Positions 11,119 to 61,791 of a DNA stretch of 64,000 nt are shown here, one piece after another. Position 1 is the first letter of the stretch; the number at the start of each line of letters is the position of its first letter. This stretch comes from an uncultured Clostridia bacterium. GTDB taxonomy: Bacteria; Bacillota; Clostridia; TANB77; CAG-508. The notes under the pieces are model-generated. The model did not search any database and was not told where the DNA came from. It saw only the letters and a program-made list of their open reading frames with translations. Position numbers and translations under genes: made by a program. The stretch spans positions 10,391-74,390 of the forward strand of contig CANRAY010000001.1 in assembly GCA_947628735.1 (NCBI GenBank), read 5' to 3'.

Positions 11119-11124
11119 TCTTAC

Positions 11125-11820: not shown

Positions 11821-11838
11821 AATTTACCTCCAATAGTA

Positions 11839-12639: not shown

Positions 12640-12718
12640 AAATTTTCCTCCTTATTTGATTAAAACAAAACTTATTATTTTGTTTTTATTTCAAAAGTGC
12701 ATAATTCTAAACACATAT

Positions 12719-12747
12719 ATTATATACGGAAATCGTTAAAAGGTCAA
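12719..12747 (-). promoter_or_regulatory. Promoter of the minDE-rodA-dusB operon
   Basis: The minus strand reads TTGACC-N17-TATAAT. It sits between the upstream terminator and the minD RBS. Confidence 0.55.
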
Positions 12748-12754
12748 TCTTTTC

Positions 12755-12794
12755 AAACAAAAAAACATCGATTATTACTATTAAATAATAATCG
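12755..12794 (-). terminator. Terminator of the 201-aa gene
   Basis: The minus strand reads CGATTATTA-loop-TAATAATCG followed by ATGTTTTTTTG. Confidence 0.65.
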
Positions 12795-12815
12795 ACATTT
12801 TTATTTTTTATAAAT

Positions 12816-13421
12816 TTATTTATAAGCTCTAATATAATCTACATCCATTGTAACATTACTTTCTGTTGTCCAAACCCATGTCCAGCCTGTAATAGGTGAA
12901 TTTCTCCATATATTAGCATCTAATCCTAGATCAAATGTTGCTGTATGCCATTGTCCATCACAAGTTAGAGTTTTTTCTATAGTTGAATCTCCTATAATAA
13001 GTTTCATTGAACCTGCATTTGAATTTGTTTTATATTTTATATCAATATAACGATATTCTCTTGGATTAAATGAAGTTACATCTTCCATAGTAATTGTAGG
13101 ATTAACATCACTAGACCTTAATGATAAAATTCCATCTACAATATTATTTTCCGCTGTTGCTGTTAATTGAAAATTTTTCCAATCTTTAAAATCTTCAAAA
13201 TATGCCATCTGATCTGCTATTTTTTGATAAGTTTCACCAATTCGATCATTTCCTTGCTCATAAGATTCTTTAATCTTAACTATTGTCGATAACTGTGTAT
13301 TTCGCATAGAAGTCGAAGCAATATAAATAGCTGTTAAAATAATTAAAAAGCTTGTAAGAGTAACAGCCACATAAACAGCCATAGAACCCTTCTCTTCTCT
13401 CACTTTTTTCTTCATTTGCAT
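12816..13421 (-). CDS. Hypothetical membrane-anchored protein with a TadE/G-like N-terminus and a beta-sandwich-like C-terminus
   Basis: EKGSMAVYVAVTLTSFLIILTAIYI resembles the Tad_N (putative Flp pilus assembly TadE/G-like) pattern. The C-terminal ~130 aa are beta-rich and end in DVDYIRAYK. It has its own promoter and terminator, and no other tad or pilus genes are nearby. Confidence 0.4.
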   Translation of the reverse strand: MQMKKKVREEKGSMAVYVAVTLTSFLIILTAIYIASTSMRNTQLSTIVKIKESYEQGNDRIGETYQKIADQMAYFEDFKDWKNFQLTATAENNIVDGILSLRSSDVNPTITMEDVTSFNPREYRYIDIKYKTNSNAGSMKLIIGDSTIEKTLTCDGQWHTATFDLGLDANIWRNSPITGWTWVWTTESNVTMDVDYIRAYK

Positions 13422-35041: not shown

Positions 35042-38000
35042 CTAATCATCTAACATATCTTGATCATTTAATAAATTATCTTCTGCTAAGTCTGTTAAAT
35101 CAAGGTCTGTTTCATCTATTTCTAATTCTTCGTCTGTAAAGTCTTCAAACAATTCTTCATTCATATCGTCATTTTCTTCTTCTGAATCTAAGTTTTCTTC
35201 TTCGTAGCCATCATTTAATTCTTGCTTGTCTAAGACTTCTTCCTCTAATTTCTTACTATCTAAATTAAAATCGATTCCATCATCAATGTTTTCTTTTAAT
35301 TCTAGTTCTTTATTATCATGTGATAGTAAACGAACATCTAAACCTAATGATTGAAGTTCTTTTATCAATACTTTGAATCCTTCTGGTACACCTGGTTCAG
35401 GAACATTCTCACCTTTTACAATTGCTTCATAAGTTTTAACACGTCCTACAGTATCATCTGATTTTACAGTTAACATTTCTTGTAATGTATATGCTGCACC
35501 ATAAGCCTCTAATGCCCAAACTTCCATCTCTCCAAAACGTTGTCCACCAAATTGAGCTTTACCTCCTAAAGGTTGTTGTGTAACAAGTGAATATGGTCCA
35601 GTTGAACGAGCATGGATCTTATCATCTACTAAGTGGTGTAATTTAAGCATATACATAACTCCTACTGTAACTGGATGATCAAATGCATCACCTGTTCTAC
35701 CATCATAAAGAGTAATTTTTCCATCTTCACGAAGTCCCGCTTTATTTAATAACTCTCTAATTTCTTCATCTGTTGCACCATCAAATACTGGAGTTGCAAC
35801 CTTCCATCCTAATGCTTTTGCTGCCATTCCTAAGTGAACCTCTAATACTTGACCTAAGTTCATACGAGAAGGAACACCAAGTGGATTTAATACTATATCT
35901 ACTGGAGTACCATCAGGCATAAATGGCATATCTTCTTCTGGTAATATTCTTGAAATAACACCTTTGTTACCATGACGTCCAGCCATTTTATCACCAACAG
36001 AGATTTTTCTCTTTTGAGCAATGTAACAACGGATTATTTGATTAACACCAGGTCCTAATTCATCTGAATTTTCTCTTGTAAATACTTTAATATCTACAAT
36101 TGTTCCACCTTCACCATGTGGTACACGAAGTGAAGTATCTCTAACTTCTCTTGCTTTTTCACCAAATATTGCTCTAAGTAATCTTTCTTCTGCTGTAAGT
36201 TCTGTTTCTCCTTTTGGAGTAACTTTACCTACTAAAATATCACCAGGTCTTACTTCTGCACCAATTCTAATAATTCCATTTTCATCTAGATCTTTTAAGC
36301 TATCATCACCAACGTTAGGAATATCTCTTGTAATTTCCTCTGGTCCTAATTTTGTATCTCTACATTCACAATCATATTCTTCAATATGAATTGATGTGTA
36401 AATATCTTCTTTTACTAATCTTTCATTGATTAAAATAGCATCCTCATAGTTATAACCTTCCCATGTTGTGAAAGCTATAAGAACATTTCTTCCTAACGCC
36501 ATTTCTCCATCTTTTGTAGCTGGTCCATCGGCGATAAGATCTCCTTCTTTAACCTTTTCTCCACGAACAACAACTGGTCTTTGATTAATACAAGTTCCAC
36601 CATTTGTTCTCTTGAATTTTCTTAATTTATAAACATCTAATTCATCTTTCTTATTTCTAATAGTAATTTCATCACCAGTTACTTTCTCTACAACACCTGC
36701 ATTTTTTGCAACTACAGTTGTTCCAGAATCTTTGGCTGCTCTATACTCAATACCTGTTCCAACAATAGGTGCCTCTGGCATAAGTAATGGAACTGCTTGA
36801 CGTTGCATGTTAGAACCCATTAAAGAACGTTTTACGTCATCATGCTCTAAGAATGGAATCATTGCGGCTGCAACAGAAACTAATTGCTTTGGTGATACAT
36901 CAACAAAGTTTACTTGATCTCTATCTACAACTGTAATTTCTTCACGAATTCTAACTCTAATTCTATCATTAACAAATACACCATTTTCATCAAGTGGTTC
37001 TGAAGCTTGTGCAATAATATATTTATCTTCTTCATCAGCTGGCATATAAACTATTTCATCTGTTACTTTACCATTTACTACTTTTCTATATGGAGTTTCT
37101 ACAAATCCATACTCATTAATAATTGCAAATGAAGAAAGTGCTGAAATAAGTCCTATGTTTGGTCCTTCTGGTGATTCTACTGGACATAATCTTCCATAGT
37201 GCGTATAGTGAATATCTCTAACCTCAAATCCTGCTCTTTCTCTTGAAAGTCCTCCAGGTCCTAATGCTGAAATTCTTCTTTTATGTGTAAGCTCTGAAAG
37301 TGGGTTTGTTTGATCCATAAACTGTGATAATTGTGAGCTTCCAAAGAATTCTCTAATTGATGATGTAATTGGTTTTGTATTAATTAATGTTTGTGGTGTG
37401 ATAACATCTAGATCTTGAATTGTCATTCTTTCACGAACAACCCTCTCTAATCTTGTTAAACCAATTCTAAATTGATTTTGAAGTAATTCACCAACGCAAC
37501 GAATACGTCTATTTCCTAAATGGTCAATGTCATCAATATTTCCTATTCCATGATCTAAATTTAATAAATAGCTAATAGATGCAATAATATCTTCTGTTGT
37601 AACATGCTTTGGAATTAATTCTTCTATTCTTTCTTTAATAACATCATGTAATTTCTTTTCTTCAGTAGTATCTACAATTGATTTTAATACTTCATAATTA
37701 ACATACTCATGAATATGTAGATCACTTAATTTAACATTTGGTAAATATTTGTGGATATTAACTGTTCCATTACCAATAATTCTAACTTTTTTGTCTTCTA
37801 CTTTAATATCAACAATATTGATTCCTGAATTCTGAATATTTTCTGCAACTTCCTCTGTAATTATTGAGTCTTTTTCTACAAAAACTTCTCCAGAACTTGG
37901 ATCTACGATATCTTCAAAAGCTACTTTTCCTGTAATTCTTGAAGCTAAACTTAATTTTTTGTTAAATTTATATCTACCAACTTTAGCTAAATCATATCTT

Positions 38001-38785
38001 CTTGGGTCGAAAAATAAACCATTGAATAAATTTCTAGCAGCATCTGCTGTTGGAAGTTCTCCTGGTCTTAATTTTTTATAAATTTCAATTAATGCTTCAT
38101 CTTGTGTCTTAATTGGATCTTTTTGTATTGTTGCACTAATTTTTGCTTCGTCCCCAAATAATTCTAATATTTGTTCATCTGTAACAACACCAATTGCTCT
38201 TAATAATGATGTTACAGGTATTTTCCTTGTTCTATCAACTCTTGCATAAAATATGTCATTAGCATCTGTTTCATATTCTATCCAAGCTCCTCTAATAGGC
38301 ATAACTGTAGAAGTATATATTTTCTTTCCTGTTTTATCATAATCAAATGCATAATAGCATCCTGGTGAACGTACTAATTGGCTAACGACAACTCTTTCTG
38401 CACCATTAATGATAAATGTTCCACTATCTGTCATAAGTGGAAAATCACCTAAATAAATCTCTTGTTCTTTTATTTCTCCTGTTTCTCTGTTAATTAATCT
38501 TACTCTAACATGTAGTCTTGTTGAATAAGTTGCATCTCTCTCTTTTGCTTCTTCTAGTGTATATTTTGTTTTGTCTTCCATATAGTAGTCTAAAAATTCA
38601 AGAACTAAATTTCCTGAATAATCGACAATTGGAGATATATCCCTTAATATTTCTCCTAGTCCTTCTTCTACGAACCAATCGTAAGAATCTTTTTGGACTT
38701 TAATCAAGTTTGGCATTTCGGTAGCATCACCGATTTTTGCAAAAGTCTTACGAGTACATTTCTCGTGCTTAATGTCTTTTACCAA
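35042..38785 (-). CDS. rpoB: DNA-directed RNA polymerase beta subunit with an extended acidic C-terminal tail
   Basis: It shows canonical RpoB blocks throughout ([45 protein letters not shown]). I prefer the TTG start at 38785, 7 nt after AGGGG; the track ORF starts at a GTG at 38794 that lacks an RBS. Confidence 0.95.
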
Positions 38786-38967
38786 AAGAATCACCCCTAA
38801 AAAATACTAAGCAGATTAAATATATATGATTTTATAAAAAAGTCCTTCTTATACATTATTTTGGTTTACCGAAATTTAGACTTCCTGCTCTTTAAAGCCT
38901 TATTTCCGTAGCCTTAATAATGCAAATTCCTCTTTTCTATAAATTTACATAACAAAAGTAAAAACAG

Positions 38968-39177: not shown

Positions 39178-42100
39178 CTATTTTGTATCATTTTCTTTTA
39201 TTTTTTTAACATAAAATATTACCTTTATTATAGCTATTATGATAGTTAATATATAAATAATACCGTATACATTAATTTCTTTACCTGTTTTTACACTGAC
39301 AATAACTTCTGCATTAGATTTATTGTCTTCTAAATTGTTATCTTCATAATTTGCTTCATTTTCAAATTCTTCAATTTCTGCTGTATTTTTCTCGTTACCG
39401 AAGTTCTCACTTCCTCTTTTCCAAACTAGAGTAATAGGAAATTCCTTTGTTTCTCCCACTTCTAGTTCAACTTCTCTTTTTAAATTTCCGTTTCCATCTT
39501 CTTTCCAATCTTTTGATGTTTTTTCAGTAGCAACAAAGTATTCTGGAAGTCTTTCTATTAAAGTAGCTTTACCAGCAATTTCTCCTGTATTACTTACTTT
39601 AATATTATATTGTATTTCTACTGTTGTATTTTCCATTTCTGAACCTACAATTTCAACTTTAATTAATTTTCCATCTAATACTTTCTGCTCTTCTCCATTA
39701 ATAATTGCTTTTGTAATGGTTTTCTCTACTGCGAAATTAAATATTTGTTTTCTATAATAATAAACAATTTCTTTATCTTCCTCTGTAAATTTTCCATCTT
39801 TATTACTTGGAATTAGCTCTTCCACTAAATTATAGAACGGAATATCTCTTGGCTCTGTTTCATAATCTTCTCCAACTTCACCAGTTTGTTCATCTCTATA
39901 AGGCTCATACTCATCTGTCTCTTCGTTTTTATGTAAAATTTCTTCATCTGTTTCAACATCTTTGTATTTTACAACAATCTTTCCTGAGACTTTCTCATAC
40001 CAGTAAATAACAATTTGTTCTTCTCTTAAAAATACACCTGTTTTATTTTCTGGTTCTGGATCTGCTGCTCGATATCCTGGTATACTTTTTCTTTCTGTAT
40101 CATATGGTGTTTTAACTTCTCCTTCTAAAACAACCTCTGTTTCTAGAACATTTTCTGTTTCTTTCTCTAAAAACTTAACAATAACTGTTCCTCTTCTTTT
40201 TTTATAATGATAAATAACATCTTTATGTTCATCTCCATATTCACCCTCTGGTTCTCCTTCTACCCAGTCTACTTCATAATCTTCAAATGGATCTCCTGTA
40301 CCAGGTTTTGTTTCATATGGTGTTCCTATTGGTTCCTCTGTATCTTTTGGTGGAATAATATCATTTCCATCTTCATCTACGTGCCTTTCTGTTAATGTTC
40401 CTTTTTGTTTTACATAATAGTATATTACCTCATCCACTCCATCTGGTAATACACCTGTTTCATTTCCTTTAACACTATCATATACATATCCAGGAATTTC
40501 TTTTTGATCTGTTGGTCCATAAGGATCTCCAGCATTTCCATTTATTTCATATTGATAAGTTTTCTCTACTCCATCTTCTTCGTAAGTAATTTCTTCACCT
40601 GTGTCTTTATCTACATAATGTACAACTACTTTTCCTGGAAGATCAAAAAATGTTTCAGCATCATCTTCTACTGTATTTTTTTCTTCTGTTTCATAGAACT
40701 CTATTGTTCCTGAAACATAATTTATCATTCTCTTATCATTAAAATTCAAATCTTTAAATACTACTGTTATATCTTTGCTAAATGATATTTCATGTTCTCC
40801 GTTTGGCTCTTTAGAAGTATCAATATCATTTAATTCTATCTCCCATGTAATAGATGGTTTTAGATCCTCATAAACTCCATCAAAAGTAGATTTACTTTCA
40901 TCTATATGATATGGCAAAATATCAGTTACAATTAACTTAGCATCTCCCTTATAGTCTTTTACTATAGCATGATATTCAATATGATAAGTTACTGGTTCAT
41001 CAGATTTTTTAACTACTGTTGGCCCTGTTTTTGTTATTTCTGCTTCTAAATCCCTATTCACAAGCCAATAATTATTAGTTATTTCAATAACATCATTTGC
41101 AAGTACGATACTAGGTGTCTCATAGGCATCTAGTTCACCATCTTGTGTAGGTTTTTCTTCTATACTATATATAATTTCTATTCCTTGTTGTGTATATTTT
41201 TGTAAATTTTCAAATGAAGCTCTCCAACTATTATCATCATTTAGAACTTTCTCTTGTCCAGTATGCATTCCATTAGAAAGTAGTTCTACAGTTACACTAT
41301 TAGGTCTTTTTCCTTTTTTATTTCCATTATCATTCCATTTTTTTATTACTTCTTTTGTTACAAGATAGTTTTGTTCTACCTCTTCTGTATCTGTATCTTC
41401 TTCTGTAATTCTTTCTCCTCCAGGATCATCTGGATAATTGCTTGGATAATATAATGTTACTGTAGCATCAACAATATTTATTAATGTTTCTGCTTTATTT
41501 TGTCCAACATATACAAATTCTATATCTTTTTCAATTGTTTCTGTATATGGTTTATTTGTTGCAAATGTATCAATATTTCTTTCTTCTTCCCAAGTAATTG
41601 TTCTAGTTATTTTATCATATTTTCCACCATTCAATTTTGTTTTCTCAGATTGAATATCTATATCAGCTGGTAAAATATCTTTAATTATAATTTTAGCTTT
41701 TCCTTTATATGAATCTATTTCAACAGTTTGTTTAATATGATATTTAACAACTCCATCTTCTTTAGTTAAAACTGCAACATTGTCTCTTACACTATCTGCT
41801 TCTGCAGTTTTCTCTACATTTGTTTTTACACTAACATCCTTTAATGTATAGTAGTAAATAACAACTTGCTCTTCCTCTGTATAAGTTCCACTTTGTGGAG
41901 TTGGGTTTTTACATTCATAATTTGGATCAACTTCACTTGATGGACTTGTATCAAAGTTTTCTCCTATAACACCTGTTTTTTCTGAATCTGGTGCTAGACT
42001 ATCTGTAGTAGCTCCAAGATCACCCTTTGATTCATCCCAGAAATAATGGTGAACAACCACCTTTCCTGGTAATTCTACTTTAACACTTGCATCATCTTTC

Positions 42101-45100
42101 TTTTCATCTCCAGGCACTGTAACTTCATATTCATCTGGATGTTCTGGATCTGTACTCTTTTGCAATAAATCAATTTTACCTGTTGCTGTATTATCTATTG
42201 TTGCATTTACAACATTTGATGGATAAATATATTTTAATGTAATATTTTTAGTAATTGTAATTACTTGTTCGTCATTATCCTCATTGTAAGTATTAACATC
42301 TACTAATGGAATATCCCAACTAATTGTATTAGTATCTGAATCAAAATGTCCTCCTTCATCTAGGTTTGAATTAGATACATCTATTGGATATGGTAATTTA
42401 TCAGTTAATGTAATTTTAGCCTTACCAACAAAATCTCTAACAGTAGCAGTATATGTTATTGTATAAGAAATTTTTGTTTCTTTGCTAGTAACTTTTTCTG
42501 TAGTTGTAGTTTTAGTAATAGTATCATCTATACTTATATCTGGTTTTTCATAAGGCGTATCTACTTCATTTGTTGATTCATCTGTAACTATTGCGACATT
42601 TTTTATAGTACCATTTTCAGGTTTATAATTAACTATAACTGTAAATTTTAATCTCACTTCTGAATTAGCTTTAATTTCTGAAACTAACCAATGAATAATT
42701 TTACCATCCGTAATTTTACCGTCATTTTCTATTGTTTTCTTTGATGTACCATCTGGTATAACATCTGTTACAGTAATATTATTAGCAGATATTTCACTTA
42801 AGTTTTTAATAACAATTGTATATTCAATTTCATCTCCTGCTGTAACTGCATCTTCACTAATATCTTCTGTTGTTTTCTTTATAAGTTTAGCTTCCTTATA
42901 AAATTTAATAATTGGTGTTTTTACTGGTCCTACAGGTATTTCTTCTTCTTCCTCTTCATCCTCTGTTGGTGGTACTTTGACCATACCTGTATTCGTAATA
43001 GTAACTTGTCCTTTTCCTTCTTGTACAGTATCTACTGTAACTTTAAATTCAACTGTAGATGTAGTTCCTTTTTTTACATGAACTGAAATTCCAGTTTGTA
43101 GATTTGTTTCATCATATGCTTGTGGTGATACTACTCCATCTATAGTTACTTTAATACTTCCTGGAACCAAAGTAGTTCCTTCTGGTACTGTATCAGATAC
43201 AGTTACATCACTATCGCTCATTCCAGTATTTGTAATATTAATCTTATAAGTAAGTTGCTCACCTTCAATTGCATAATTATGTCCATATTGTGTAGTTACA
43301 GTTTTATTAGCATTAATAATAGCATCTCCAGCAGCATTTTCTATTATAACATACACCTCTGGCATATTTTCAAAGTCATCTGCACCTTTTATACTAACTT
43401 TACTATTATCTAAGTTTTGAAGTTCACTTACTTCTAGGACTTTCGTATTAGCATTTCTATTAACTTTTAATTTATGTTCCTTTGTATTTAATTTATATAT
43501 GCTTTCTCCAACTCTATCTTGAACAATTTTCCATGTATCAGCATATAGTTCTTTCCAAGCTATCGATCCTTCTGGTGCATTTTTTTGATCACCATTTGTA
43601 TATTGATCAGAACCTGTTAAAGTAAAATCAGACCCTTTTATTAAAGTTTCTTCATCCTTTACTTTATTAATAACAGTAAGATTATATTTGTACAAATTTT
43701 GAATGTCCAAATAAACAATATTTGTATTTTCTCCATTTCTTACTGCTTTAACAAATCCATTTGCATTTCCACCTGGTTGATTATCATCATCTAATATTTG
43801 TAATTCATAAGTTCCATTATTATATACAACACGGAATTTAATTTCATTTGTATCTAAAATATAAGGACTACTAATATCTTTTTGATGAATAACATAAATT
43901 CCATCAACATATAAACCGCTATATTGTGCTATGGTGTTTCCTACTTTTTTAGCATCTCCATAAGTATCTCCATACTTTTCACCCTTAATTTCTATTGTTG
44001 CAGATGCATTTGTAATTTGTGGTGTTGCGTTTTTTATAGTAGATTGAGTGTTATATTTATAATCATTAATAATAAGATTATATTTTTTTCCTGAGCCTAT
44101 TTGAACACCTACTTTATCTGTTTCAGTTGAACGACCCGCAGCACCTACTGCATCAAAATATATAGCATGGGTTGCATACGTAATATCTCCATAATTTACA
44201 TTTGCAGGTAAATTAACATCATAATAAAGAACTTCTCTTGTTTTAGCCGCAATTTGGTTGCTTCCAAAATCAATCATATATGATTTTACACGAGACCAAT
44301 CTGGGTTTTGAATCCAAACACTATCACCTGAAGTACCTTTTGTATCATCTTTTGTTGCATTTTCATTATACGAATAATAAACTGTATATTTTCCATTTAT
44401 ATCATTATAATCTGTTTTAATTCCTGCAGCATCCATAGTTGTATCTATTTTTGAGCCTAATTCTCTATCTGAATTAATAACATTTTTATTACCTGTAAAT
44501 GGTATTCTTCCTACTATTTTTACATTACTAATAGCAGATTCATAACCATTTGAAACATTTATGTTAATTCTTACTTTTTTATTTGCTTCCTTAGCTACAC
44601 TTGCCACATTTGGTCCTTCTACAACTGTACCAAGATCATCAAAATTAGTAACTTGTGTTGATGTATATAATGTATTTGATGTTGCATAATAAATTTTTAA
44701 ACTTTCTGCTCTTGTTGTTTCTGTTTTATTGTTATCATTATCTATATCATATATATCTTCTGCATTATCAGATTCTCTATTGTAATATTTCCAAAGATTA
44801 CATGCCTCATTATAAGCAAATATTCTTACAGTGTCACTATCTTTTCTACTGCTATTATTAATTAAAGATTGAAATTTTAAATATCCAACTTCTAATTCTT
44901 TAGTAATAACACCTTCTAGTTCTAATGTTAATATATATTTATTACCTTTCTTTTCAACCTCATGCTTTTTTATTTCTATATCATTACCATTATTATAAAA
45001 AGTAAAACTATTATAAATAACCTCCGTAAAAGTTTCTGGAAACTCTACAATGATTTTTGGATTAACCCAATTAACATAATCTTTATCAAGATACTTTTCA

Positions 45101-47306: not shown

Positions 47307-47798
47307 ATGCCAGTTATTTTAAAATATTTAATTACATTTGGAATCTCTATGGTACCTATTATTGAACTAAGAGGAGCTATCCCTGTTGGCGTTGGAATGG
47401 GATTATCTTATTTTGAATCATTTATTTGTAGTTTTATTGGAAATATCATTCCAATTTATTTTATTGTAAAATTCATTAGACCACTTTTTGATTTTTTTGG
47501 AAGATGGAAAATCTTTAAAAAAATTATTGATTTCGCCACAGAAAAAGCAACTAGAAACATTGAAAACAACCCACGTTTACAAAACTTTACTGCATTAGGT
47601 TTATTTTTATTTGTTGCTATTCCTTTACCTGGCACAGGTGCATGGGTTGGATCACTAATTGCTAATTTTCTAAATTTACCACCTAAAAAAGCTATTCCAC
47701 CAATTGTAGCCGGTGTATTTACTGCAGGAGTTATTGTTTTATCAATTACTGCAGTTGCTGCTGGTGGTATTCAAGCTATTTTTACACATACAATGTAA
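47307..47798 (+). CDS. Small polytopic membrane protein of the COG2426 / small multidrug export-like family
   Basis: 163 aa with about 4 TM segments. MVPIIELRGAIPVG and LPGTGAWVGSLIA are characteristic of that family as I recall it. It is the only plus-strand gene between P2 and P3. Confidence 0.6.
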   Translation: MPVILKYLITFGISMVPIIELRGAIPVGVGMGLSYFESFICSFIGNIIPIYFIVKFIRPLFDFFGRWKIFKKIIDFATEKATRNIENNPRLQNFTALGLFLFVAIPLPGTGAWVGSLIANFLNLPPKKAIPPIVAGVFTAGVIVLSITAVAAGGIQAIFTHTM

Positions 47799-53800: not shown

Positions 53801-56800
53801 ATCAATACCATCCTTTAACTCTTGTTCAGTATATACAGATCTAAGTGAAGCATCATTTATTTTGATAATAATACTATCATCAACAAATGTTGTTCCTTCT
53901 GGAGCAGAATCTTTTACATTTGCTGTTCCATCTAAATCTCCACTATTTGTTAATGTAATTGTATATGTAATTTCTTCTCCTTCCATTGCATATTTTCTAG
54001 TTGTTCCATCTACTAATTTTACAAATGCATCTTTTTCTCCTGTAATAACTGCTTCTTTATATGTATTTACAACTTGTACTGTGTGAGTTTCTGGTTGCTC
54101 TTGATTTGGTATATCTTCTGTAACAGTTGCAACATTTTTAATTTCAGCACCATTTGTTAAATCTTTTTCTATTTGTGATACTTTTACCGAAAATTCTACT
54201 GTTGCTATTGTATGTGCTGGAATTTCTATAGATATTCCATTTTTCAAATTATCTTCACTATATGAATTTCCTTCTGATGGATTTTGTTTTTCTTCACCTA
54301 TTTTTACAATAATACTATTTTCAACAAATGTTGTACCCTCTGGAGCCGTATCTTTTACAGTTGTTTTTGCAGGAGCAGTTCCATTTGTATTATCTAATTT
54401 GATTGTATATGTAATTGTATCATTTACTTTTACTGCTGTTTCAGAATCTGGATTATTTATTTTACTTACTTTTAAATCTGAAGCATATTCTTTTATTGGC
54501 TCACTAGTTGGATTATCCTTTGGATCATCAGTTGGATCTTCTCCTGGTTCTTCATCATTATCTTCTATATGAGCTGTATTAATAATTTCTCTTTCTGTTT
54601 CTTCTTCATTTAAAGGTAAAACTTTTACTCTAAATGTTAATGTTTTTGATTTTCCTGCTTCTAAAGTTACATCAATTCCATTTATTAAATCTTGTTGCGT
54701 ATAATCAGTACCATCAAGTTTTACTTGTACTTGATTATCACTATCTTCAATTTTAATACTTTTATCAACAAATTCTGTACCTGCTGGAATCTCATCTTTA
54801 ATTTTAGCTGTTCCTTCTTTGTTTCCGTTATTAGTTACAGTAATAGTATATTCTATAAAATCTCCTGCTACTGCATATGTTCTTTCTTCCTCATCTTCAG
54901 CTAATATTAATTTAGCTGTTTTTGTAGCAATAATATCTGCCGCTTCATAAGTATTTTCAATAATAACATAAACAGTTGGTTGATGTTCATAATCATTATT
55001 TTCTATTCTTATTGTAGTATCATCCAACTCAGAAAGATTTTCTAATTTTATTTTTCCATCTTCATCTCTTGAAACAGTAAATTTATGTTCTTTGTCATCT
55101 TTTACATATTTATTATTTCCTACTTCTTCTTGAGTAACAGTCCATGTATCTTCTAATTCATTTTCCCATGTTGCTTTTCCATCTTCTGCTACTTTGATAT
55201 TATCTTCTTTTTCCTGTTTCTCACCTTCTACTTTGATTTTTGAACCTGTAATATAATCTTCAGAACCTTTTACCTTATTCTCTACAACAATATTATATTT
55301 GTATTTATTTTGAACATCTAATCTAACAGTTGGAACATCAGATTCTGGATCTTCAATTTCTGTTGCTTTTATAAATTCTTTTGTTTTTTCTTCCTCATCT
55401 AAAATTTCAAATACAAGATCTCCATTAAGGTCTGTTGTTAAACGGAACTTAATTTCATTTTCATCTCTAATATATGGATCACTGATTTTACTTTGATGAA
55501 CTGTATACACTGCTCCTACATATAAATCATCATAAACTGCAGGATTATTTCCTGTAACTTTATCATTATTCCAATCTTCTCCAAGATTTTCACCTTTTAT
55601 TTGGAAAGTAGCTTCAGCATTTGTTACAGTTTCTGTTGCATTTGGAATTAATGACTCTGTTTTAAATTTATAATCGCTAATTTTTAATTTATATTTTTGT
55701 CCACCTATTTGTAGTCCAACTTTATCTGGTTCAGTTGAAGTTTCACTAGACGTACCCTTAGAATGGAAATAAATAGCATGATCTGCATAAGTCTTTTGTC
55801 CATAAGATAATTTTTCTGGTAAATCAATCCAGTAATAGAAACTAAAATTAGACTTTGCTGGAACTTCTGAACTTATTTCTATTTTATATGATTTAATATT
55901 TTCCCAATCAGTTGGATGTTCTTCCCATTCCGAACCATCTTTTGTTGCATTTTCATCTGTTGAATAATATACTTTATAACTTAAATTTTGTTTATAATTC
56001 TCGTCTATTTTAATTCCTGTTTCTTCCATTGTTGTTGAGAATTCTGATCCAAGCTCTATACTGCTATTTATTACATGATCATTTCCTACAAATGGAATTC
56101 TTCCTACAATAACTGTACCTGTAATCGGATTAGAATATCCATTTGAAACTAATATATTTACTCTTGCTTTATTACCTGATGCACTTGGTATAATTGAAGC
56201 TATATTTGGTCCTTCTACAATAGAACCTAATTCATCAAAATCTGTAATTTGTGTTTTGGTTACTAAATTATCTGTTTGTGCATAATATATTACTGGTTTT
56301 TCAATTCTGGTCTTCTCATTCTTATTACTGTCACCATCAATATCATAAATATCATCAACATATTCTGATGATCCTAGATATGCAACATCATAATATTCAC
56401 AAATACTGTTATATCCAAATACTCTAATTCTATCAGCTGATTCTAGTGTAGGATTTTCAACTAATGATTGAAATTTTAAAAGTGAGTCTGAGTTTGATGT
56501 AATAATTCCTTCTGTTTCTATTTTCATCACAATATGATTTTCTATTTTTTCTATTTTTACTTTTTTAACTTTTACATTCACTCTACTAGTCGAAAAACTA
56601 CTATATGAAACTTTTGTAAAATTATCTGGAAACTCTATATATAACGTTGGATTTACCCATGCTGTAAATTGTCTATCAATATCACTATCTCCTGCAAAAA
56701 AATGAATTATCATAGTATTTTTATTCAATTTTTGTGGGTCAAATGTATAATTTTCTTTATCAAACTCTGGATAATATGATGTACTACCTTCTCTATAATC

Positions 56801-58570
56801 TACATTTTTTACATCACCATTAATTGAAGTTAGTTTTGCTTCATCACTATATTTAACAAGTCCATGTAATGTAGAATATAATTTTACAAATTTCTCAAAT
56901 TCATCTTTATCATGTTCTGTTTTTAATATTTGATTATCAATATTTTTTATATGTTCTATCTTAATATTACCTGTTGATACTGGTTTACTTGTTTCTATTC
57001 TAATATGCTCAATAGGAGTATCATATTTTATTAATTCATTTGCATCAGTATATCTAATTTCCTTAACAACTTTATCAGAATCTGCATCATAAACATAAAC
57101 AATTCCATTTTCACCCAAAACATCAAATGTTGTCTCAGAAACACGAATACCTTCATAATGAATAAATGGATCCATGTCGTAAAAATTACCATCTGAATCT
57201 GCAAAATGATCTGTATCTTCTTCATAAGCTTCATCTAAAACATTTTTTGCATTTGAATAATCTTCTGCAAAAACGAATTTCTCTATTTTTTCATCATACA
57301 AATAGAAATCTAGGTTCCAGTCAACCTTATAGTTAACTTTCATGTCAACATTTTTATCATAGATTAATCTACTATTTGTTTTAGATAATAATGATTCATC
57401 AATATCAATATTATATAAAAGCACAGAACCTTTAGGATTTTTTACATCAACTGACATTGTTACACTTTTTTCTTTAGACTGCACTTTTTCTCTTTCACCA
57501 TTTATGTTAGTTGACCATCCCTCTAGATATGCACTTGCTGTAAAGTCAATATTATTAGTTGTGGCTTCTATTTCATCATATACTTCAATTGGATATTCCA
57601 TAACAATATTAGTAAAATACCATTGTTCCCCATAAATAACATAACCTTTTCCCGCATCTGACAATGGATTTTCTATACTAATTTTTAATTCACCTGTTGA
57701 CTTATCATATGATTGCTCTTTAATGTTTTTTTTGTAAGTACTCATATCATTAACATGAATTGCTGTAGGATACTGTCCTCCTATACTTGGGGCTGTTCCA
57801 CTAATAACAAGTCCAGCATCTGGTGCCATTACAGTATCAGTATCTCCAGTTTTTGTAAATGCCCATGGATTATAAACAAGATATACCTTTTCTTCTTTTT
57901 CATCTACAATAAATAAATTATCTTCAGCATAACACCAAAAACCATACTCATATTCATAATCAATACTTCCATACCAATCAATTCTAAATTCAATTTCCTT
58001 TTTAATTTTTTGAGTCTGACCACTTTTATCTATATAATTACCACTAAAGGTTAACTTATTTGTTCTAGAAAGAAGATTAACATTAAATGTATCCATAAAA
58101 GTATCAAAAACTTTTTGTTCAAAAGTAAGGTCAATTGGTTTTGTAGTACCGTTATTTATTGTATTGAAATAAATTGAATTACCACTTACACTTCTAATTT
58201 GGTCATCTGTAGAAATATTTTTTATCATTGAAAAATTGCCATTTGATTCCCAAGATATTTGTGCATTCTGTAACTGTCCTTCTGTTTGGACTGTTAATGT
58301 AGTTTTCAATACAACTTGTTCATTTAGCTCTTGCCTAATACCCCTATATTTTTTTCCATCTGTTGATTCGAAATATGCATCAAACTTTACAAATTCAGAA
58401 CCTGTATCTGATGAATTTTCTGGTAATTGTTCAAAGTTTTCAAAAGATTCTGTGTTTTTAACTGCTTTTACTTCGACATTTGAAAAACTACCCAATATTG
58501 CTGTCATAATACAAATAATTGCAATAATTAAAAACAAAAACTTTAATTTAACCGATACCTTTTTCTCCAT
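47885..58570 (-). CDS. Giant cell-wall-anchored surface protein paralog P3 (3561 aa)
   Basis: It starts with a signal peptide (FLFLIIAIICIMTAILGSFSNVEVKA) and a ~950-aa N-terminal region homologous to P1 and P2 (FRIDWYGSIDYEYE, NPKGSVLLYNIDIDE, IEHIRIETSKPV, IVEGPNIASI, VGRIPFVGN, YADHAIYF). SpaA-like folds and nine DUF11-type repeats follow. Then come isopeptide-D2-like modules, a Cna-B-type domain (about 49870-50090) and four tandem MucBP-like repeats (about 48450-49350). It ends in SVKTG + TM + KRK. Confidence 0.92.
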   Translation of the reverse strand: MEKKVSVKLKFLFLIIAIICIMTAILGSFSNVEVKAVKNTESFENFEQLPENSSDTGSEFVKFDAYFESTDGKKYRGIRQELNEQVVLKTTLTVQTEGQLQNAQISWESNGNFSMIKNISTDDQIRSVSGNSIYFNTINNGTTKPIDLTFEQKVFDTFMDTFNVNLLSRTNKLTFSGNYIDKSGQTQKIKKEIEFRIDWYGSIDYEYEYGFWCYAEDNLFIVDEKEEKVYLVYNPWAFTKTGDTDTVMAPDAGLVISGTAPSIGGQYPTAIHVNDMSTYKKNIKEQSYDKSTGELKISIENPLSDAGKGYVIYGEQWYFTNIVMEYPIEVYDEIEATTNNIDFTASAYLEGWSTNINGEREKVQSKEKSVTMSVDVKNPKGSVLLYNIDIDESLLSKTNSRLIYDKNVDMKVNYKVDWNLDFYLYDEKIEKFVFAEDYSNAKNVLDEAYEEDTDHFADSDGNFYDMDPFIHYEGIRVSETTFDVLGENGIVYVYDADSDKVVKEIRYTDANELIKYDTPIEHIRIETSKPVSTGNIKIEHIKNIDNQILKTEHDKDEFEKFVKLYSTLHGLVKYSDEAKLTSINGDVKNVDYREGSTSYYPEFDKENYTFDPQKLNKNTMIIHFFAGDSDIDRQFTAWVNPTLYIEFPDNFTKVSYSSFSTSRVNVKVKKVKIEKIENHIVMKIETEGIITSNSDSLLKFQSLVENPTLESADRIRVFGYNSICEYYDVAYLGSSEYVDDIYDIDGDSNKNEKTRIEKPVIYYAQTDNLVTKTQITDFDELGSIVEGPNIASIIPSASGNKARVNILVSNGYSNPITGTVIVGRIPFVGNDHVINSSIELGSEFSTTMEETGIKIDENYKQNLSYKVYYSTDENATKDGSEWEEHPTDWENIKSYKIEISSEVPAKSNFSFYYWIDLPEKLSYGQKTYADHAIYFHSKGTSSETSTEPDKVGLQIGGQKYKLKISDYKFKTESLIPNATETVTNAEATFQIKGENLGEDWNNDKVTGNNPAVYDDLYVGAVYTVHQSKISDPYIRDENEIKFRLTTDLNGDLVFEILDEEEKTKEFIKATEIEDPESDVPTVRLDVQNKYKYNIVVENKVKGSEDYITGSKIKVEGEKQEKEDNIKVAEDGKATWENELEDTWTVTQEEVGNNKYVKDDKEHKFTVSRDEDGKIKLENLSELDDTTIRIENNDYEHQPTVYVIIENTYEAADIIATKTAKLILAEDEEERTYAVAGDFIEYTITVTNNGNKEGTAKIKDEIPAGTEFVDKSIKIEDSDNQVQVKLDGTDYTQQDLINGIDVTLEAGKSKTLTFRVKVLPLNEEETEREIINTAHIEDNDEEPGEDPTDDPKDNPTSEPIKEYASDLKVSKINNPDSETAVKVNDTITYTIKLDNTNGTAPAKTTVKDTAPEGTTFVENSIIVKIGEEKQNPSEGNSYSEDNLKNGISIEIPAHTIATVEFSVKVSQIEKDLTNGAEIKNVATVTEDIPNQEQPETHTVQVVNTYKEAVITGEKDAFVKLVDGTTRKYAMEGEEITYTITLTNSGDLDGTANVKDSAPEGTTFVDDSIIIKINDASLRSVYTEQELKDGIDISVPAKGKAVLEFRVKVNKITDETKETITNIATITQPDHPEPKPEDKTVETKTPVIVTKKTVEITRKVEGQVKDNCATMGDTIKYTIEVSNISEENASDIIIKDKIPNGTKYKSSDNQENYSEETNEITWTIDSLAGGHDGEKGETKTVSFEVTVVEIPEGHKIKNVATVGEHPTNETETDYARPEINITKSSEIENEYVTTGDVITYTLTITNSGKAEGTVTIKDPILEEQVELVEKSIKVKKSSGEEEPKSEGDYTAEDLKSGITVKVAPGEEKTLEFQVTVKELAGVEKIVNKGTYTVVGPNYNPDDPKPDPDPKDEHETNEVEDPYKRSDISMKKTVEISSEQPYAVPNDTLTYYITITNSGNLAKKVKVIDSAPDGTTFVEGSVKVGEEERTTVKEADLESGIDVDVKENSSVVVSFKVTVNDLEGDAKVGKIENIATVDGKETPKVETVVDKSDLKVSKMNDPKEAVTAGQVITYTILLDNSTGKAPATVKVKDNVPTGTDLVANSIKVMKYKNDEDTWESENQGIDDTQLESGISVTIDAGAKKKVEFKVKVKDLEKGATIKNVATVIDDATKEPEGRKTNIVENPYVETDIVAEKVATSEYGREYVIEGEKIKYTITLTNKGDLATTVKVKDTAPDNTEFVSDSIEVLDSNDMRVEGTYTEDNLRDGIDVKVEANSTSKVIFEVRVLNIENQPQVTIRNKATYQESKTNQDPEEPDPKEIETNETKTPVMKYYKTVEISNKEKEQLPENSVTVGDVIKYIITVENISEVDVSKIVVKDKIPEGTVLKHIDNDGVYNGQGEITWKISELKAGMKTTVSFEVTVNYQNKDAIIKNVAVVDGKETNEIDTPYKKPEPIVDHSVDKSGDVTVADVNAKVRYSIEYNAEIKDFKGKAKITMVDTLPFPIDDANSQLNGGHYQAIDGTYTITWEEILTVDSFEGQNNIINRIKNLELKYIYPDGGELTGSINNKVQVTVDLIQEENEEDVIVKTETTEDNHSANLEIQGDVIVHHYIYDEDKGGRTTDKLVEDRQLAPGLVGETYTTSPLTGEELDPNYECINPEPESDNHTGIREKETKHANYYYKLKDPTIENSVDKTAEIKVLTQENGVVKYNITQKVKVDTYKGKVTIALKDILPAAINKGASKLDGGTYHPESRTITWTIEKNIDTFTDGIYEETISKNIEIVYEDQNVLLPLENKVNAKVILYNPENYTPAPNEKRKVDEKEDKETVEQKYIVNQAVQKVWEDGDDHNGKRPSSIIVELIADGVRTDKRAVLNAGNNWTTTFENLDKYSALGNKIVYSVEEIEANPEDLLFYEAPTLSGENPIIITNRYRTIAENIDAVINKDGPEKITSFREGVNYTINYQATLTDYRGDAKLKIIDYLPYHIDAESSVLSDGTYTGVYDENTNTITWEISMNNINTDENGNYSIQFKTNIVLVFNDIDSSINSLSNKVDAILDLYANNSSNVVTDIETTPVDIRGKLIVHYKDKKTGEELTHEVDGVQQEYKYEEEGRVGDTYTARKEIIPGYVFDSVKGNEFGVYEDGTIEVTFYYVNEETPGIDVRWVDEDGNDLATPERIPGEGQPGKIGDPYHTEPKDFDDYELDYVEGETDGTLTEEGGEVVYHYKKKVGTVIVQYLEKDTEEELLPEKVEKYPIGEEYTTERENIPNYRRADPEPDNKNGIVTKEDTYVKYYYERIPGGKVVTKHVDVDTGEEILYPDEDTGEYETYREEQTGDVGDPYTTDPLDIPYYDLVEELLPTNQDGFFGEEDKEVIYFYRKQTFNFKVDKVITKAVINGEEQKVLDGKLIKVEIVGSEMEDTDVEITYKIRVTNTGEIAGTTTVLEKLPKHFTIGKEVYDEWTENKNGNLEAEVSLEPGETKEFTIKLTWKRGSANFGREINTAEIKDFDNDAHYDDNNEKDNTSEAEVVMSVKTGAPGYTFFIVYIIAIVVSITEVIIFYKRKTEAKL
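47987..48001 (-). other. Putative non-canonical sortase recognition motif SVKTG of P3
   Basis: AGTGTTAAAACAGGT encodes SVKTG. It is followed by APGYTFFIVYIIAIVVSITEVIIFY and KRKTEAKL. Confidence 0.55.
51306..54878 (-). repeat. Array of nine diverged DUF11-type (conserved repeat domain) modules within P3
   Basis: The recurring pattern is GD.I.YTIT..N.G...... V.D..P.GT.FV..SI.V ... L..GI.V.V......V.F.V.V, about every 85-130 aa. I counted nine copies by eye in the translation. Confidence 0.75.
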
Positions 58571-58790: not shown

Positions 58791-58815
58791 AAAAAGAGTT
58801 CCAAACAGGAACCCT
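58791..58815 (-). terminator. Terminator after the 45-aa ORF (end of the two-component operon)
   Basis: The minus strand reads AGGGTTCC-TGTTT-GGAACTCT followed by TTTTCTT. Confidence 0.6.
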
Positions 58816-58827
58816 TGATTTTAATTT

Positions 58828-58965: not shown

Positions 58966-59026
58966 AATCTTCAACTCCTATATTTATATTATAGAGTGTA
59001 TGCTATAAAATATCAAGCTTAATATT

Positions 59027-61063
59027 CTATTTCATCTTTTCAAATTCAATTGTAATCTTAAACAAATCTCCATCCAAGTAAATATTAAACTTGCCACCCT
59101 GAAGTTCCGTTAAACTCGTAGCAATAGAAAGTCCTAAGCCGCTTCCTTCCGTATTTCTTGAAACATCTCCTCTAACAAATCTTTGCATTAACTCATCAGC
59201 CGTGATATTCAATTTTTCCTTTGAAATATTTTTTATTTGTATAATTACATCTTCACCCTGATCAATAATATCTGTATACACTCTTGTATTATCTAAAGCA
59301 TATTTAGATACATTTGAATACATATTTTCTAAAATACGATACATATATCGATTATCTGCATAAATATAAATTGGCTTTTCTGAAAAAGTAATAATTTCTT
59401 CTAAATGATTTACCTTAAACTTATCTTCAAACTCTCCTGAAACCTGCTTAATTAATTCATTAATCTCTAATTTTTCTTTATTTAGTTTAATATTACCTGA
59501 AGAAGCTTTTGATGCTTCAACTAAATCCTCTGTTAATTTTTTTAATCTCTGTGATTTATTATCTAGTATTGTTAAATATTCTTTTGCCTTTTCATTAGTA
59601 ATACCATCTCTTTTTAATAAATCAATATAATTAATAATAGATGTAAGAGGTGTTTTTATATCATGAGACACATTTGTAATTAATTCTGTTTTTAATCTTT
59701 CACTTTTTAACTGTTCTGCAACTGCATTTGAAAGTCCTCCAGCAATATCATTAATATAAATAGCAATTTGCTTCATCTCACCTTTAAATTTACTTGTATC
59801 TAAATGAATATCTGTATTTCCTTTATAAATCTCCTCTAAAGCTTTTTTTAATTTCTTAAAAGCTACTATACCTCTAATTATAGCAGAAAATGTTAGTACA
59901 TATAATATCATCAGGCAAATAGCCCCAATAACAGATCTTCTAAATAGAACATAGATAAGCCAATTTGCTATAATAAACCCAATAAATAATATAGAAACTC
60001 TCAAAGATACTTTTGTATTTTCCATCATTTCTTTAATTTGTTTATATATCCAATAAACAAATGTTGTTTCAATAAAAGTATGTGTTTTTAATCTCTTAAC
60101 AATTGTTTCTAAAAGTACAATATTAACCACATAAAACGTACCAAGACCCATACATAATGCAATTAACGCTATAATAATTTCATTATATACTCCAATAAAA
60201 CATAATATAAATGAAAACATAAAAAATGGTATTGATAATAAAATAACTATTTCCAGGCTCCATTTATCTAAAAAGTCTAAATGTATCCCTTCTTCTCTGC
60301 TAGTATGACCTATACCTAGCAAAATCACAAAAATCATAACGCAAAACAGAATTATAATAGTTGGTATAAGATAAATAGACCATTCTCTTAATGCTAAAGT
60401 CGTGTTATAAACCCAATAACGTGAAAAATAAGAATCATAATTTGGTACATCTTCTAACATACACGTATAGATTTCGTATTTGCCATCTTTCAAATATTCA
60501 CGATAAAATGAAGTGGTCGCATCCATATTTCCTTTTAGTTTATCTATTGATGTATCAACTTTTCCATTAACACATTTCCAATATAAAGAACTTGACAAAA
60601 TTTGAGATTTAATTGTTGAAACTTTATTATTAGCCACATTATCTTCTAAATTGGTATAAATTGCACCATTTTCATGATCGATAATTAAATAGTTAAAATT
60701 AGATTGAAACGCCATATAATAAATAGGCACTTCAGAATCATAATCTTCTTCACTAATCAAATGATATGAATGATAACCATACATTAATCTATCACCATAT
60801 AATTCTTCCCCATATTCTAGGGTTAAATCATAATAAACAGAATTAATTGATTCAATTTCATTAATAGCATTTTTTAGTGATGTCGAATATGAATCTGCAA
60901 AATCTACTGATTCGAAATAAGTTTCTCCTCTTCTCATAGAATCTGTACTACAAATCAAAGATATAATACAAGCCAATAACAAAACTAATAATATGGGAAT
61001 CATAAAATAAGACAAATTTTTAAATACACGTATCCAACAAATTTTCTTTTTTGTCTTTTCCAT
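59027..61063 (-). CDS. Sensor histidine kinase with a large N-terminal extracytoplasmic domain and a multi-TM block
   Basis: After one TM segment comes a ~190-aa extracellular region, then about 6 TM segments and a HAMP-like linker. The H-box is LITNVSHDIKTPLTSIINYIDLL and the HATPase domain contains EGSGLGLSIA. Confidence 0.88.
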   Translation of the reverse strand: MEKTKKKICWIRVFKNLSYFMIPILLVLLLACIISLICSTDSMRRGETYFESVDFADSYSTSLKNAINEIESINSVYYDLTLEYGEELYGDRLMYGYHSYHLISEEDYDSEVPIYYMAFQSNFNYLIIDHENGAIYTNLEDNVANNKVSTIKSQILSSSLYWKCVNGKVDTSIDKLKGNMDATTSFYREYLKDGKYEIYTCMLEDVPNYDSYFSRYWVYNTTLALREWSIYLIPTIIILFCVMIFVILLGIGHTSREEGIHLDFLDKWSLEIVILLSIPFFMFSFILCFIGVYNEIIIALIALCMGLGTFYVVNIVLLETIVKRLKTHTFIETTFVYWIYKQIKEMMENTKVSLRVSILFIGFIIANWLIYVLFRRSVIGAICLMILYVLTFSAIIRGIVAFKKLKKALEEIYKGNTDIHLDTSKFKGEMKQIAIYINDIAGGLSNAVAEQLKSERLKTELITNVSHDIKTPLTSIINYIDLLKRDGITNEKAKEYLTILDNKSQRLKKLTEDLVEASKASSGNIKLNKEKLEINELIKQVSGEFEDKFKVNHLEEIITFSEKPIYIYADNRYMYRILENMYSNVSKYALDNTRVYTDIIDQGEDVIIQIKNISKEKLNITADELMQRFVRGDVSRNTEGSGLGLSIATSLTELQGGKFNIYLDGDLFKITIEFEKMK

Positions 61064-61089
61064 TTCCTTCTCCTTTTAAATAGTTATTT

Positions 61090-61791
61090 TTACTTCTCTA
61101 AATTTTCTATTTTATACCCTACACCCCAAATTACTTTTAAATATTTAGGTTCCCTAGGATTAATTTCTATCTTTTCACGAATATGACGAATATGCACAGC
61201 AATAATATTTTCCGCTCCATAACATTCTTCTTCCCAAACATTTTGATAAATCTGTTCAATAGAATAAACAATTCCTTTGTTTTTTGTTAGAAACTTTAAA
61301 ATATTATATTCTGTAGGTGTCAATTTTACATTTTTTCCTTCTACAATTACTTCTTTTGTTATATCATTTATTTCTAACTGACCAGTCCTATAAATTTGTT
61401 CTTCTTCTTTCACCATAGATCCCAATGAAGTATATCTACGAATTTGTGAATTTACTCTAGCAATTAATTCCAAAGGATTAAAAGGTTTGGTAATATAATC
61501 ATCTGCTCCATTATTAAGTCCAGCTATTTTATCATAATCTTCTGATTTAGCAGATAACATAATAATTGGAATAGCTTTATCTTTACGAATTATATTAGCT
61601 ACACTAATTCCATCTAATTTTGGCATCATAACATCTAATAATACCAAATGAATATCTTTTACTTGATCTATTATTTCTAATGCTTCTTTTCCATCATAAG
61701 CTTTTAAAATATTATATCCTTCTTTAGAAAGATAAATTTCAATAGCTTTTACAATTTCCTTATCATCATCTACTACTAAAATATTATACAT
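61090..61791 (-). CDS. OmpR/PhoB-family response regulator
   Basis: It has a receiver domain (ILVVDDD ... LLDVMMP ... SAK) and a winged-helix output domain (LTPTEYNILKFL ... IWGVGYK). Confidence 0.9.
   Translation of the reverse strand: MYNILVVDDDKEIVKAIEIYLSKEGYNILKAYDGKEALEIIDQVKDIHLVLLDVMMPKLDGISVANIIRKDKAIPIIMLSAKSEDYDKIAGLNNGADDYITKPFNPLELIARVNSQIRRYTSLGSMVKEEEQIYRTGQLEINDITKEVIVEGKNVKLTPTEYNILKFLTKNKGIVYSIEQIYQNVWEEECYGAENIIAVHIRHIREKIEINPREPKYLKVIWGVGYKIENLEK

Follow-up and report, generated by a model that had tools for sequence, protein, structure and literature searches.

The locus studied here raises the question of what the ~900 amino acids (aa) that follow the signal peptide of three giant clostridial surface proteins are, and what they do. 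The window, that is, the whole stretch of 64,000 nucleotides that was analysed, belongs to an uncultured Clostridia bacterium (GenBank assembly GCA_947628735.1, contig CANRAY010000001.1, positions 10,391 to 74,390 of the forward strand). It is a chromosome segment of low G+C content (26–33%) in which the minus strand holds nearly all genes. An earlier note, made from the letters of the window, had found in three paralogous proteins, here named P1, P2 and P3, an N-terminal region of no nameable family, and had proposed that it may be a new binding or enzymatic head. The results presented below indicate that this region is a module of five predicted beta-sandwich domains which defines a large and uncatalogued family, and we consider it reasonably probable that the module is the non-enzymatic binding head (A-region) of a Gram-positive fibrillar adhesin.

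The N-terminal module of the three paralogs

P3 (47885..58570, minus strand) is a complete gene, identified from the list of open reading frames (ORFs) and their translations, which encodes a giant surface protein of 3561 aa whose exact product is entry P0236 (NCBI contig). P2 (39178..47013, minus strand) is a complete paralog of 2611 aa. The third paralog, P1 (1..1482, minus strand), starts at position 1482 and is cut by the left edge of the window, so that 494 N-terminal aa remain, comprising the signal peptide, the first two domains of the module (D1 and D2) and part of the third (D3). All parts of P3 and P2 described hereafter lie on the minus strand. A basic n-region and a hydrophobic core can be read at the start of P1, P2 and P3 and constitute a predicted secretion signal. 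The putative signal peptide of P3 covers aa ~1–36 (58463..58570) and ends in ...VEVKA, where cleavage would take place; in the AlphaFold2 model aa 2–30 form a helix, followed at aa 29–39 by a disordered linker with a low predicted local distance difference test (pLDDT) value.

The head module itself occupies aa ~40–958 of P3 (55697..58453), where positions 1–911 of the family profile align, and aa ~50–975 of P2 (44089..46866). The range delimited by the earlier note (55700–58480) corresponds to P3 aa 31–957 and fits this boundary, which was derived independently. Homology between the paralogs in this region is clear, as had been claimed. By BLASTP, P3 and P2 share 41% identity over aa 2–1490 and 44.9% over aa 1–965, P3 and P1 59% over 492 aa, and P2 and P1 44%, with E-values for the head region from 0 to 6e-122; the sliding identity within the head ranges from 0.36 to 0.60. 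The seven motifs quoted for the region were all located at equivalent positions of the paralogs (P3 aa 195, 378, 452, 522, 784, 822 and 928). However, the head is not the best conserved part of these proteins, as had been stated, because the C-terminal block of P3 (aa 2179–3528) shares 46.7% identity with P2 and the head ~45%, so that both are about equally conserved.

Searches against known families

No match to Pfam, to NCBIfam or to the sequences of the PDB was found for P3 aa 1–1200, even at E≤10, so these HMM and profile searches place the head in no catalogued family and the failure to name one was justified. The heads of P1–P3 and those of ten family members gave only noise in hmmscan searches of Pfam at E≤10, and nine segments of the fifth domain (D5) gave nothing. 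NCBIfam returned only the DUF11 repeat when full proteins were searched. Neither the single sequence nor the family profile gave a meaningful match among the PDB sequences, the only hits being SUMO2 and designed 'Cake' propellers, all of them at E>0.04. The hidden Markov models (HMMs) Big_8, SdrG_C_C and Collagen_bind had no match in the heads of P1–P3 or in ten family members (E≤10), and those of DUF11, DUF7507 and DUF7927 had none in aa 1–1200.

Predicted structure of the head

AlphaFold2 was run on P3 aa 1–965 with a 38-sequence alignment (mean pLDDT 78.3, predicted template modelling score 0.59) and, as a separate model, on aa 40–382, which comprise D1 and D2 (pLDDT 85.0, predicted template modelling score 0.79). 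After the helix of the signal peptide, the head is modelled as an all-beta chain with low-confidence breaks at aa 206–218, 377–381, 439–451 and 726–753. It is predicted to consist of five beta-sandwich, immunoglobulin-like (Ig-like) domains of 150–200 aa each, with approximate boundaries. D1 (aa ~45–205, 57956..58438) is modelled as a sandwich with strands between aa 61 and 200, has a pLDDT of 80–94 in the full model and carries FRIDWYGSI at aa 195. D2 (aa ~206–380, 57431..57955) would be a sandwich with variable loops, in which family conservation falls to 0.19–0.20 at aa 326–375; the separate model suggests that D1 and D2 are two confidently packed sandwiches. D3 (aa ~381–560, 56891..57430) has a mainly beta secondary structure with three short helices in the model and may comprise two subdomains. 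It bears NPKGSVLLYNIDID at its start, DTDHF at aa 452 and HIRIETSKPV at aa 522, and its residues K397, G486, G489, G534 and K542 are 90–100% conserved. D4 (aa ~561–725, 56396..56890) is again a predicted sandwich, with conserved N616, N640-P641, P648, G688 and N721, and is followed by a linker (aa 726–753, 56312..56395) with pLDDT <50, a family conservation of 0.12 and 62% gaps. D5 (aa ~754–958, 55697..56311) is the most conserved domain, with N810 and W882 at 100%, G823 at 99% and Y868/Y869 at 98%. It contains IVEGPNIAS, VGRIPFVGN, YYS..ENAT and YADHAIYF, together with a weak DUF11-like signature, 'N.G....V.V...IP.G'.

A cryptic repeat array was also considered. D1–D5 were compared by hhalign with one another and with an alignment of 98 DUF11 segments, and the probability never exceeded 9.3%. 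Since profile-profile probabilities were ≤9%, the five head domains are taken to be mutually unrelated and unlike DUF11, and the repeat array was rejected on the mutual values. The comparison of D5 with DUF11 gave only 9% probability, over the signature mentioned above.

When the whole head was compared with the PDB by Foldseek, the legs of integrin alpha chains were matched at E 1e-14, followed by the macroglobulin (MG) arrays of complement C3, alpha-2-macroglobulin and thioester-containing protein (TEP), by ClfA (2vr3) and by Antigen I/II (AgI/II; 4tsh). In the BFVD viral library the best match was a DUF11-array protein (E 8e-17). The global template modelling (TM) score of the whole head was ~0.14, as expected of flexible multi-domain chains. 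The D1-D2 model matched the integrin alphaV legs (TMq 0.48, E 8e-9) and the binding regions of Gram-positive and fungal adhesins, namely Bbp, SdrG, SdrE, ACE, UafA, SspB, SpaP, Als3 and Bap (E 1e-7 to 1e-5, TM 0.2–0.3). These models assign the module to a fold class that adhesins employ, that of Ig-like sandwich arrays, and homology to any one family was not established.

The earlier note had raised the matter of a tandem of already described adhesin domains, and the answer is a divided one. Tandem Ig-like sandwiches of the kind present in AgI/II, in DUF11 adhesins and in the microbial surface components recognizing adhesive matrix molecules (MSCRAMMs) are indeed matched (Foldseek probability 1.0, E 1e-7 to 1e-17), but the TM scores are 0.2–0.5 and there is no sequence-level membership in any described adhesin family. 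Because Foldseek matches adhesin sandwich tandems at low TM and sequence families remain unmatched, the fold class can be called ordinary, as can the adhesin architecture as a whole, and the families of the five head domains are undescribed.

Size and distribution of the family

A word-indexed homolog search gave 17 matches of 22–25% identity, and a profile search raised them to 38. The rarity that the 17 word-indexed matches implied proved to be a prefilter artefact when an exhaustive hmmsearch was carried out over 1.84 billion cluster representatives (clusters at 50% identity), which returned 2,284 clusters at E≤1e-3 and 1,397 at E≤1e-30. Since the module defines such a large family, its description as paralog-specific was misleading. 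Almost all of these clusters match profile positions 1–910 at their own N-terminus, and both the length of the module (880–970 aa) and the order of its five domains are invariant across the family. Most members have ~1,670 aa (1,600–1,750 aa) and are built of a signal peptide, the ~900-aa module, DUF11/CLIPPER repeats, SdrD_B (PF17210 in the main family), a C-terminal DUF11-like domain and an anchor. The proteins of the window form part of a divergent giant subfamily of 2.6–3.6 thousand aa, of which the 150 top matches include only two other representatives, P0142 (3307 aa, 47% identity, Pfam layout as in P3) and P0163 (3108 aa, 40% identity). The remaining family is 22–25% identical to P3 over all five domains. 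In the databases, members are annotated as 'hypothetical protein' or 'SdrD B-like domain-containing protein [Clostridia bacterium]'.

With regard to taxonomic spread, a single conserved motif of D5 led to 318 loci in the species representatives of GTDB. The 80 loci listed out of the 318 all belong to metagenome-assembled genomes (MAGs) of uncultured low-GC gut Clostridia, named as uncultured Clostridia, Clostridium sp. CAG-type, 'Candidatus Merdicola' or 'Ca. Scatovivens', and the family is taken to be restricted to such organisms. The listed loci come from human, chicken, rabbit and mouse guts and from the rumen, and their median G+C content (28%) is similar to that of the window. Two paralog-specific patterns (KEI[EQ]FRID and WYGSI..) scanned over the same species representatives detected no relative, so that the giant subfamily was not seen there with these two patterns. 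Several MAG contigs carry two family copies 10–14 kb apart (L021/L022, L048/L054 and L050/L058), and therefore tandem paralogy such as that of P3 and P2 is common in this lineage.

The main-family genes occupy a recurrent site, in which mreB-mreC-mreD-PBP2-minC and two or three tiny ORFs on the opposite strand precede the family gene (L001:959-6187, L082:2747-7923, L084:1202-1816); in L084, SpoIIE is found downstream. The ~1,670-aa gene is followed after 4–17 nt by another giant ORF, of 2111 or 1774 aa (L082:13987-20322, L084:8219-13543; also L083 and L085). The encoded protein bears a signal peptide, ends in a hydrophobic stretch with a basic tail, matches nothing in Pfam and has only its last ~250 aa in common with the family. 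The partner encoded in L084 contains 'VYCIQP' at aa 76–81 and 'KQRALW' at ~aa 155, which we take to resemble the Cys and Gln motifs of thioester domains.

Stalk and putative C-terminal anchor

Between the head of P3 and its first DUF11 match, which begins at aa ~1230, there are two more domains of ~120 aa (aa 965–1230, 54881..55678) that occur in the giant subfamily only and have no significant Pfam match. Their counterpart in P2 (aa ~983–1240, 43294–44065) has a weak match to SpaA (prealbumin-like; E=0.014). The stalk of P3 (48002..54880) consists of ten DUF11/CLIPPER domains, DUF7927, Cna_B, four MucBP domains and a C-terminal DUF11-like domain by Pfam and NCBIfam, in line with what had been described for the downstream half; that of P2 has three DUF11, one Cna_B and five MucBP domains (Pfam). 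Isopeptide bonds stabilise the CLIPPER/DUF11 domain, which is of the stalk type (10.1101/2025.04.25.650565). The MucBP domains, which lie in the C-terminal half, may be adhesive themselves.

The C-terminal tail of P3 (47888..48001) reads SVKTG, a hydrophobic stretch of ~22 residues and KRKTEAKL. Its counterpart at the C-terminus of P2 is found at 39181–39290, SVKTG being the motif of the window. Among 161 full-length members, 157 have [STG][VIL]xTG followed by a hydrophobic stretch and 155 have a K/R-rich tail, while LPxTG is present nowhere in P2 or P3. Clostridial sortase motifs can be other than LPXTG, e.g., (S/P)PXTG or NVQTG (PMC4155245). This layout appears to be of the tripartite cell-wall sorting signal type with a non-canonical motif, and the protein may be processed by a sortase.

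Comparison with known adhesins and sandwich arrays

Fibrillar adhesins are a defined class (PMC8286594, PMC9210967), and in those of Firmicutes it is the N-terminal end, beyond the stalk, that bears the adhesive part (PMC8286594). P1–P3 share with this class a predicted N-terminal signal peptide, and P3 and P2 also share its tandem stalk domains. They differ from it in that no known adhesive domain was found in head aa 1–1200 by Pfam and NCBIfam.

The closest architecture is that of MSCRAMM A-regions (the N2-N3 domains of SdrG, ClfA, Bbp and SdrE, and the collagen-hug domains of Cna and ACE), which likewise consist of several sandwiches at the N-terminus and are followed by B-type repeats and, C-terminally, by an anchor in the wall or membrane; SdrD_B (PF17210) is a further feature that main-family members have in common with them. 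D1-D2 match Bbp (5cfa), SdrG (1r17), SdrE (5ihw) and ACE (2z1p) at E 1e-7 to 1e-5, but with TM 0.2–0.3 and a root-mean-square deviation >20 A, so that the geometry differs, and the full head matches ClfA (2vr3) with a TMt of 0.37. MSCRAMMs have two or three domains, whereas the present head has five. Furthermore, the MSCRAMM marks are missing, namely the Big_8, SdrG_C_C and Collagen_bind domains, LPXTG and a TYTFTDYVD-like motif; a regular-expression search for T[YF]TF[TS]DY found none in aa 1–1000 of P1–P3.

The C-terminal domains of AgI/II (SspB 2wza, SpaP 3opu and 4tsh) are also tandem sandwiches of ~150 aa, of the DEv-IgG type, and were matched at E 1e-6 to 1e-8. There is no sequence relationship with them, and their sandwiches are C-terminal whereas those described here are N-terminal. 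Isopeptide bonds like theirs are conceivable in the present family, given its conserved Lys, Asn and Asp/Glu positions. Judged from the alignment, the sets K191/N112/D64, K210/N301/D316 (family numbering), K542/N721 and K893/N810 could represent candidate isopeptide triads in several domains, and P3 itself lacks some of these Lys and Asp positions (G210, Q316).

The arrays of CLIPPER/DUF11 (CnaA-like) domains resemble the head by the match in the viral library and by the D5 signature, and DUF11 is present in the stalk of the same proteins. However, CLIPPER/DUF11 domains have ~110 aa and the head domains 150–200 aa, and all five of the latter differ from DUF11 both by HMM and by hhalign. Finally, the integrin alpha leg (thigh, calf-1 and calf-2) and the MG arrays of complement and alpha-2-macroglobulin are rigid strings of large sandwiches that gave the best PDB scores. 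They are eukaryotic or periplasmic, have an unrelated function and share 7–12% identity, and the head has neither a propeller nor a thioester domain, so that the likeness is one of fold class only.

Proposed function of the head

The reading of the module as an uncatalogued, non-enzymatic binding head is the one we prefer, as a signal peptide, non-repetitive N-terminal sandwiches, an isopeptide-type stalk and a C-terminal anchor are the standard grammar of Firmicute fibrillar adhesins. According to it, the Sec signal peptide would export the protein, and the C-terminal S[VIL]xTG with its hydrophobic and basic segments would retain it at the surface, either as a sortase substrate or as a plain membrane anchor. 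The stalk of CLIPPER/DUF11, Cna_B/SpaA-like and MucBP domains would hold the five-domain head off the cell, and the head would bind its ligand non-enzymatically, probably through sandwich surfaces or inter-domain clefts, as in MSCRAMMs and AgI/II. Strain-level variation is compatible with this. Substitutions were concentrated in the tip-proximal ~500–700 aa in two of four clusters at 90% identity, and in the P0017 cluster 5–9% of the sites were variable there and ≤1% elsewhere. Such a polymorphism fits an exposed interaction surface and may lend modest additional support.

Several data weigh against a binding head. The tip-proximal signal is absent in the other two of the four clusters, and the five-domain layout and length, fixed over >1,000 clusters, are more conservative than typical fast-evolving adhesin heads, which could mean a structural role. 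The structural matches are at the level of fold class (TM 0.2–0.5), and sandwich arrays match promiscuously. The alignments behind the models were shallow (38 and 21 sequences), and a separate model was used in the structure search for D1-D2 only, D3–D5 having been judged within the full-length one. No sortase gene lies in the window, S[VIL]xTG being a candidate sortase substrate, and the grounds for both binding and surface exposure of the head are indirect.

The alternative that survives best is that the head is a structural scaffold, whose sandwiches extend the stalk or build a lineage-specific envelope or fibril, possibly with the giant downstream partner of the main family, and which has no specific external ligand. 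We regard it as rather unlikely, though worth serious consideration. The invariance of domain order and length favours it, as does the near-ubiquity of the family in one low-GC group of Clostridia, often in two copies. The main-family genes stand at a conserved site after mreBCD-PBP2-minC, tightly coupled to the gene of a second giant secreted protein, and the structural matches are arrays of the leg or stalk type (integrin legs, MG arrays and a DUF11 array). Conservation in a family alignment of 164 sequences points in the same direction. The great majority of the 76 positions conserved at ≥80% are G, P, N, W, Y and K (e.g., G486, P648, N810 and W882 at 100%, K397 at 98%), and conserved G, P, W, Y and N look like core residues. 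However, profile comparison finds no relationship among the five domains, which sets them apart from repetitive stalks, and these proteins already have a long recognisable stalk. The N-terminal site of the head, distal to the anchor, is where the adhesive regions of Firmicutes lie (PMC8286594), and two clusters show the tip-proximal polymorphism described above. In addition, the copies of the window have no mre/min synteny and no homolog of the partner gene was found in the window.

A more elaborate proposal sees in the head not simply another adhesin tip but the mark of a surface organelle that would be made of two proteins, the second being the downstream giant partner of the main family (with the thioester-like motifs of the L084 copy), and that would occur throughout this lineage of uncultured low-GC gut Clostridia. 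It might contain undescribed Lys/Asn/Asp cross-links and might recognise a gut ligand conserved across vertebrate hosts. We consider it improbable.

Of the binding or enzymatic head proposed in the earlier note, the first part stands, as the module is distal, N-terminal, uncatalogued and a coherent conserved unit, and the second does not. A novel surface hydrolase or transferase (a glycosidase, a protease or a transglutaminase-like enzyme) now seems very unlikely. The sequence leaves room for it inasmuch as no family could be assigned, and chains of Transglutaminase 2 and 3 are among the Foldseek matches. However, these have TM 0.13–0.24 amid generic multi-beta-sandwich matches and point to the sandwich domains rather than to the catalytic core, the aligned region of the target being unreported, and no other enzyme fold appears among the top structural matches. 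Moreover, the model is all-beta without an alpha/beta or barrel catalytic fold, and the PDB profile search was empty. Across the 164 members none of His, Cys and Ser is conserved (the median number of Cys per module being one), and the alignment shows no conspicuous conserved acidic pair of the glycosidase type. The enzymatic reading is thus largely refuted by the missing nucleophiles and folds. Covalent capture, either by a protease trap like alpha-2-macroglobulin and TEP or by the thioester-domain head of certain adhesins, is equally hard to credit and was rejected for want of motifs and conserved nucleophiles: Foldseek did match E. coli alpha-2-macroglobulin, TEP1 and complement C3, and Pfam gave weak bMG10 matches, yet the latter lie inside the DUF11 region, CxEQ is absent from aa 1–1000 of P1–P3, Cys is not conserved in the family, the model has no helical thioester domain and the MG likeness is that of a generic sandwich array (TM 0.10–0.16). 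Because the conserved His, Cys and Ser, CxEQ and the TYTFTDYVD-like motif are all missing, an enzyme, a thioester device and a canonical dock-lock-latch MSCRAMM are each disfavoured.

Genomic context in the window

P3 is immediately preceded by the genes, oriented as it is, of a histidine kinase (678 aa) and of an OmpR-type response regulator (233 aa) at 59027–61791 (minus strand); this pair may regulate the adhesin genes. The 456 bp that separate the kinase gene from the start of P3 contain a terminator-like hairpin (58794–58816, a 9-bp stem plus a T-run, minus strand), flanked by promoter-like hexamers at 59016–58988 and 58646–58618; at 28% G+C, promoter and terminator scans are uninformative, and the hairpin and hexamers count as weak evidence. 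Between P3 and P2, a 163-aa gene at 47307–47798 (plus strand), which encodes a small exporter (Sm_multidrug_ex, PF06695), is the sole plus-strand gene in the P3/P2 part of the window. The rpoB gene (35042–38794, minus strand) lies directly downstream of P2 after a gap of 383 bp and is followed by rpoC, an adhesin gene of 7.8 kb immediately 5' of the rpoBC operon being an unusual placement. The SMC gene adjoins P1, and the min/rodA cluster of the window is found at 10012–13421, apart from P1–P3.

Significance

The finding fills a gap and overturns nothing, as the fold class and the architecture are conventional. The module marks an entirely uncatalogued family of at least 2,284 clusters at 50% identity, present in hundreds of species of uncultured gut Clostridia. 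The proteins of this family are the largest surface proteins of these organisms, whose interactions with host and mucus are essentially unexplored. Defining the five domains would clear ~900 residues per protein of annotation 'dark matter' and would give targets for binding studies.

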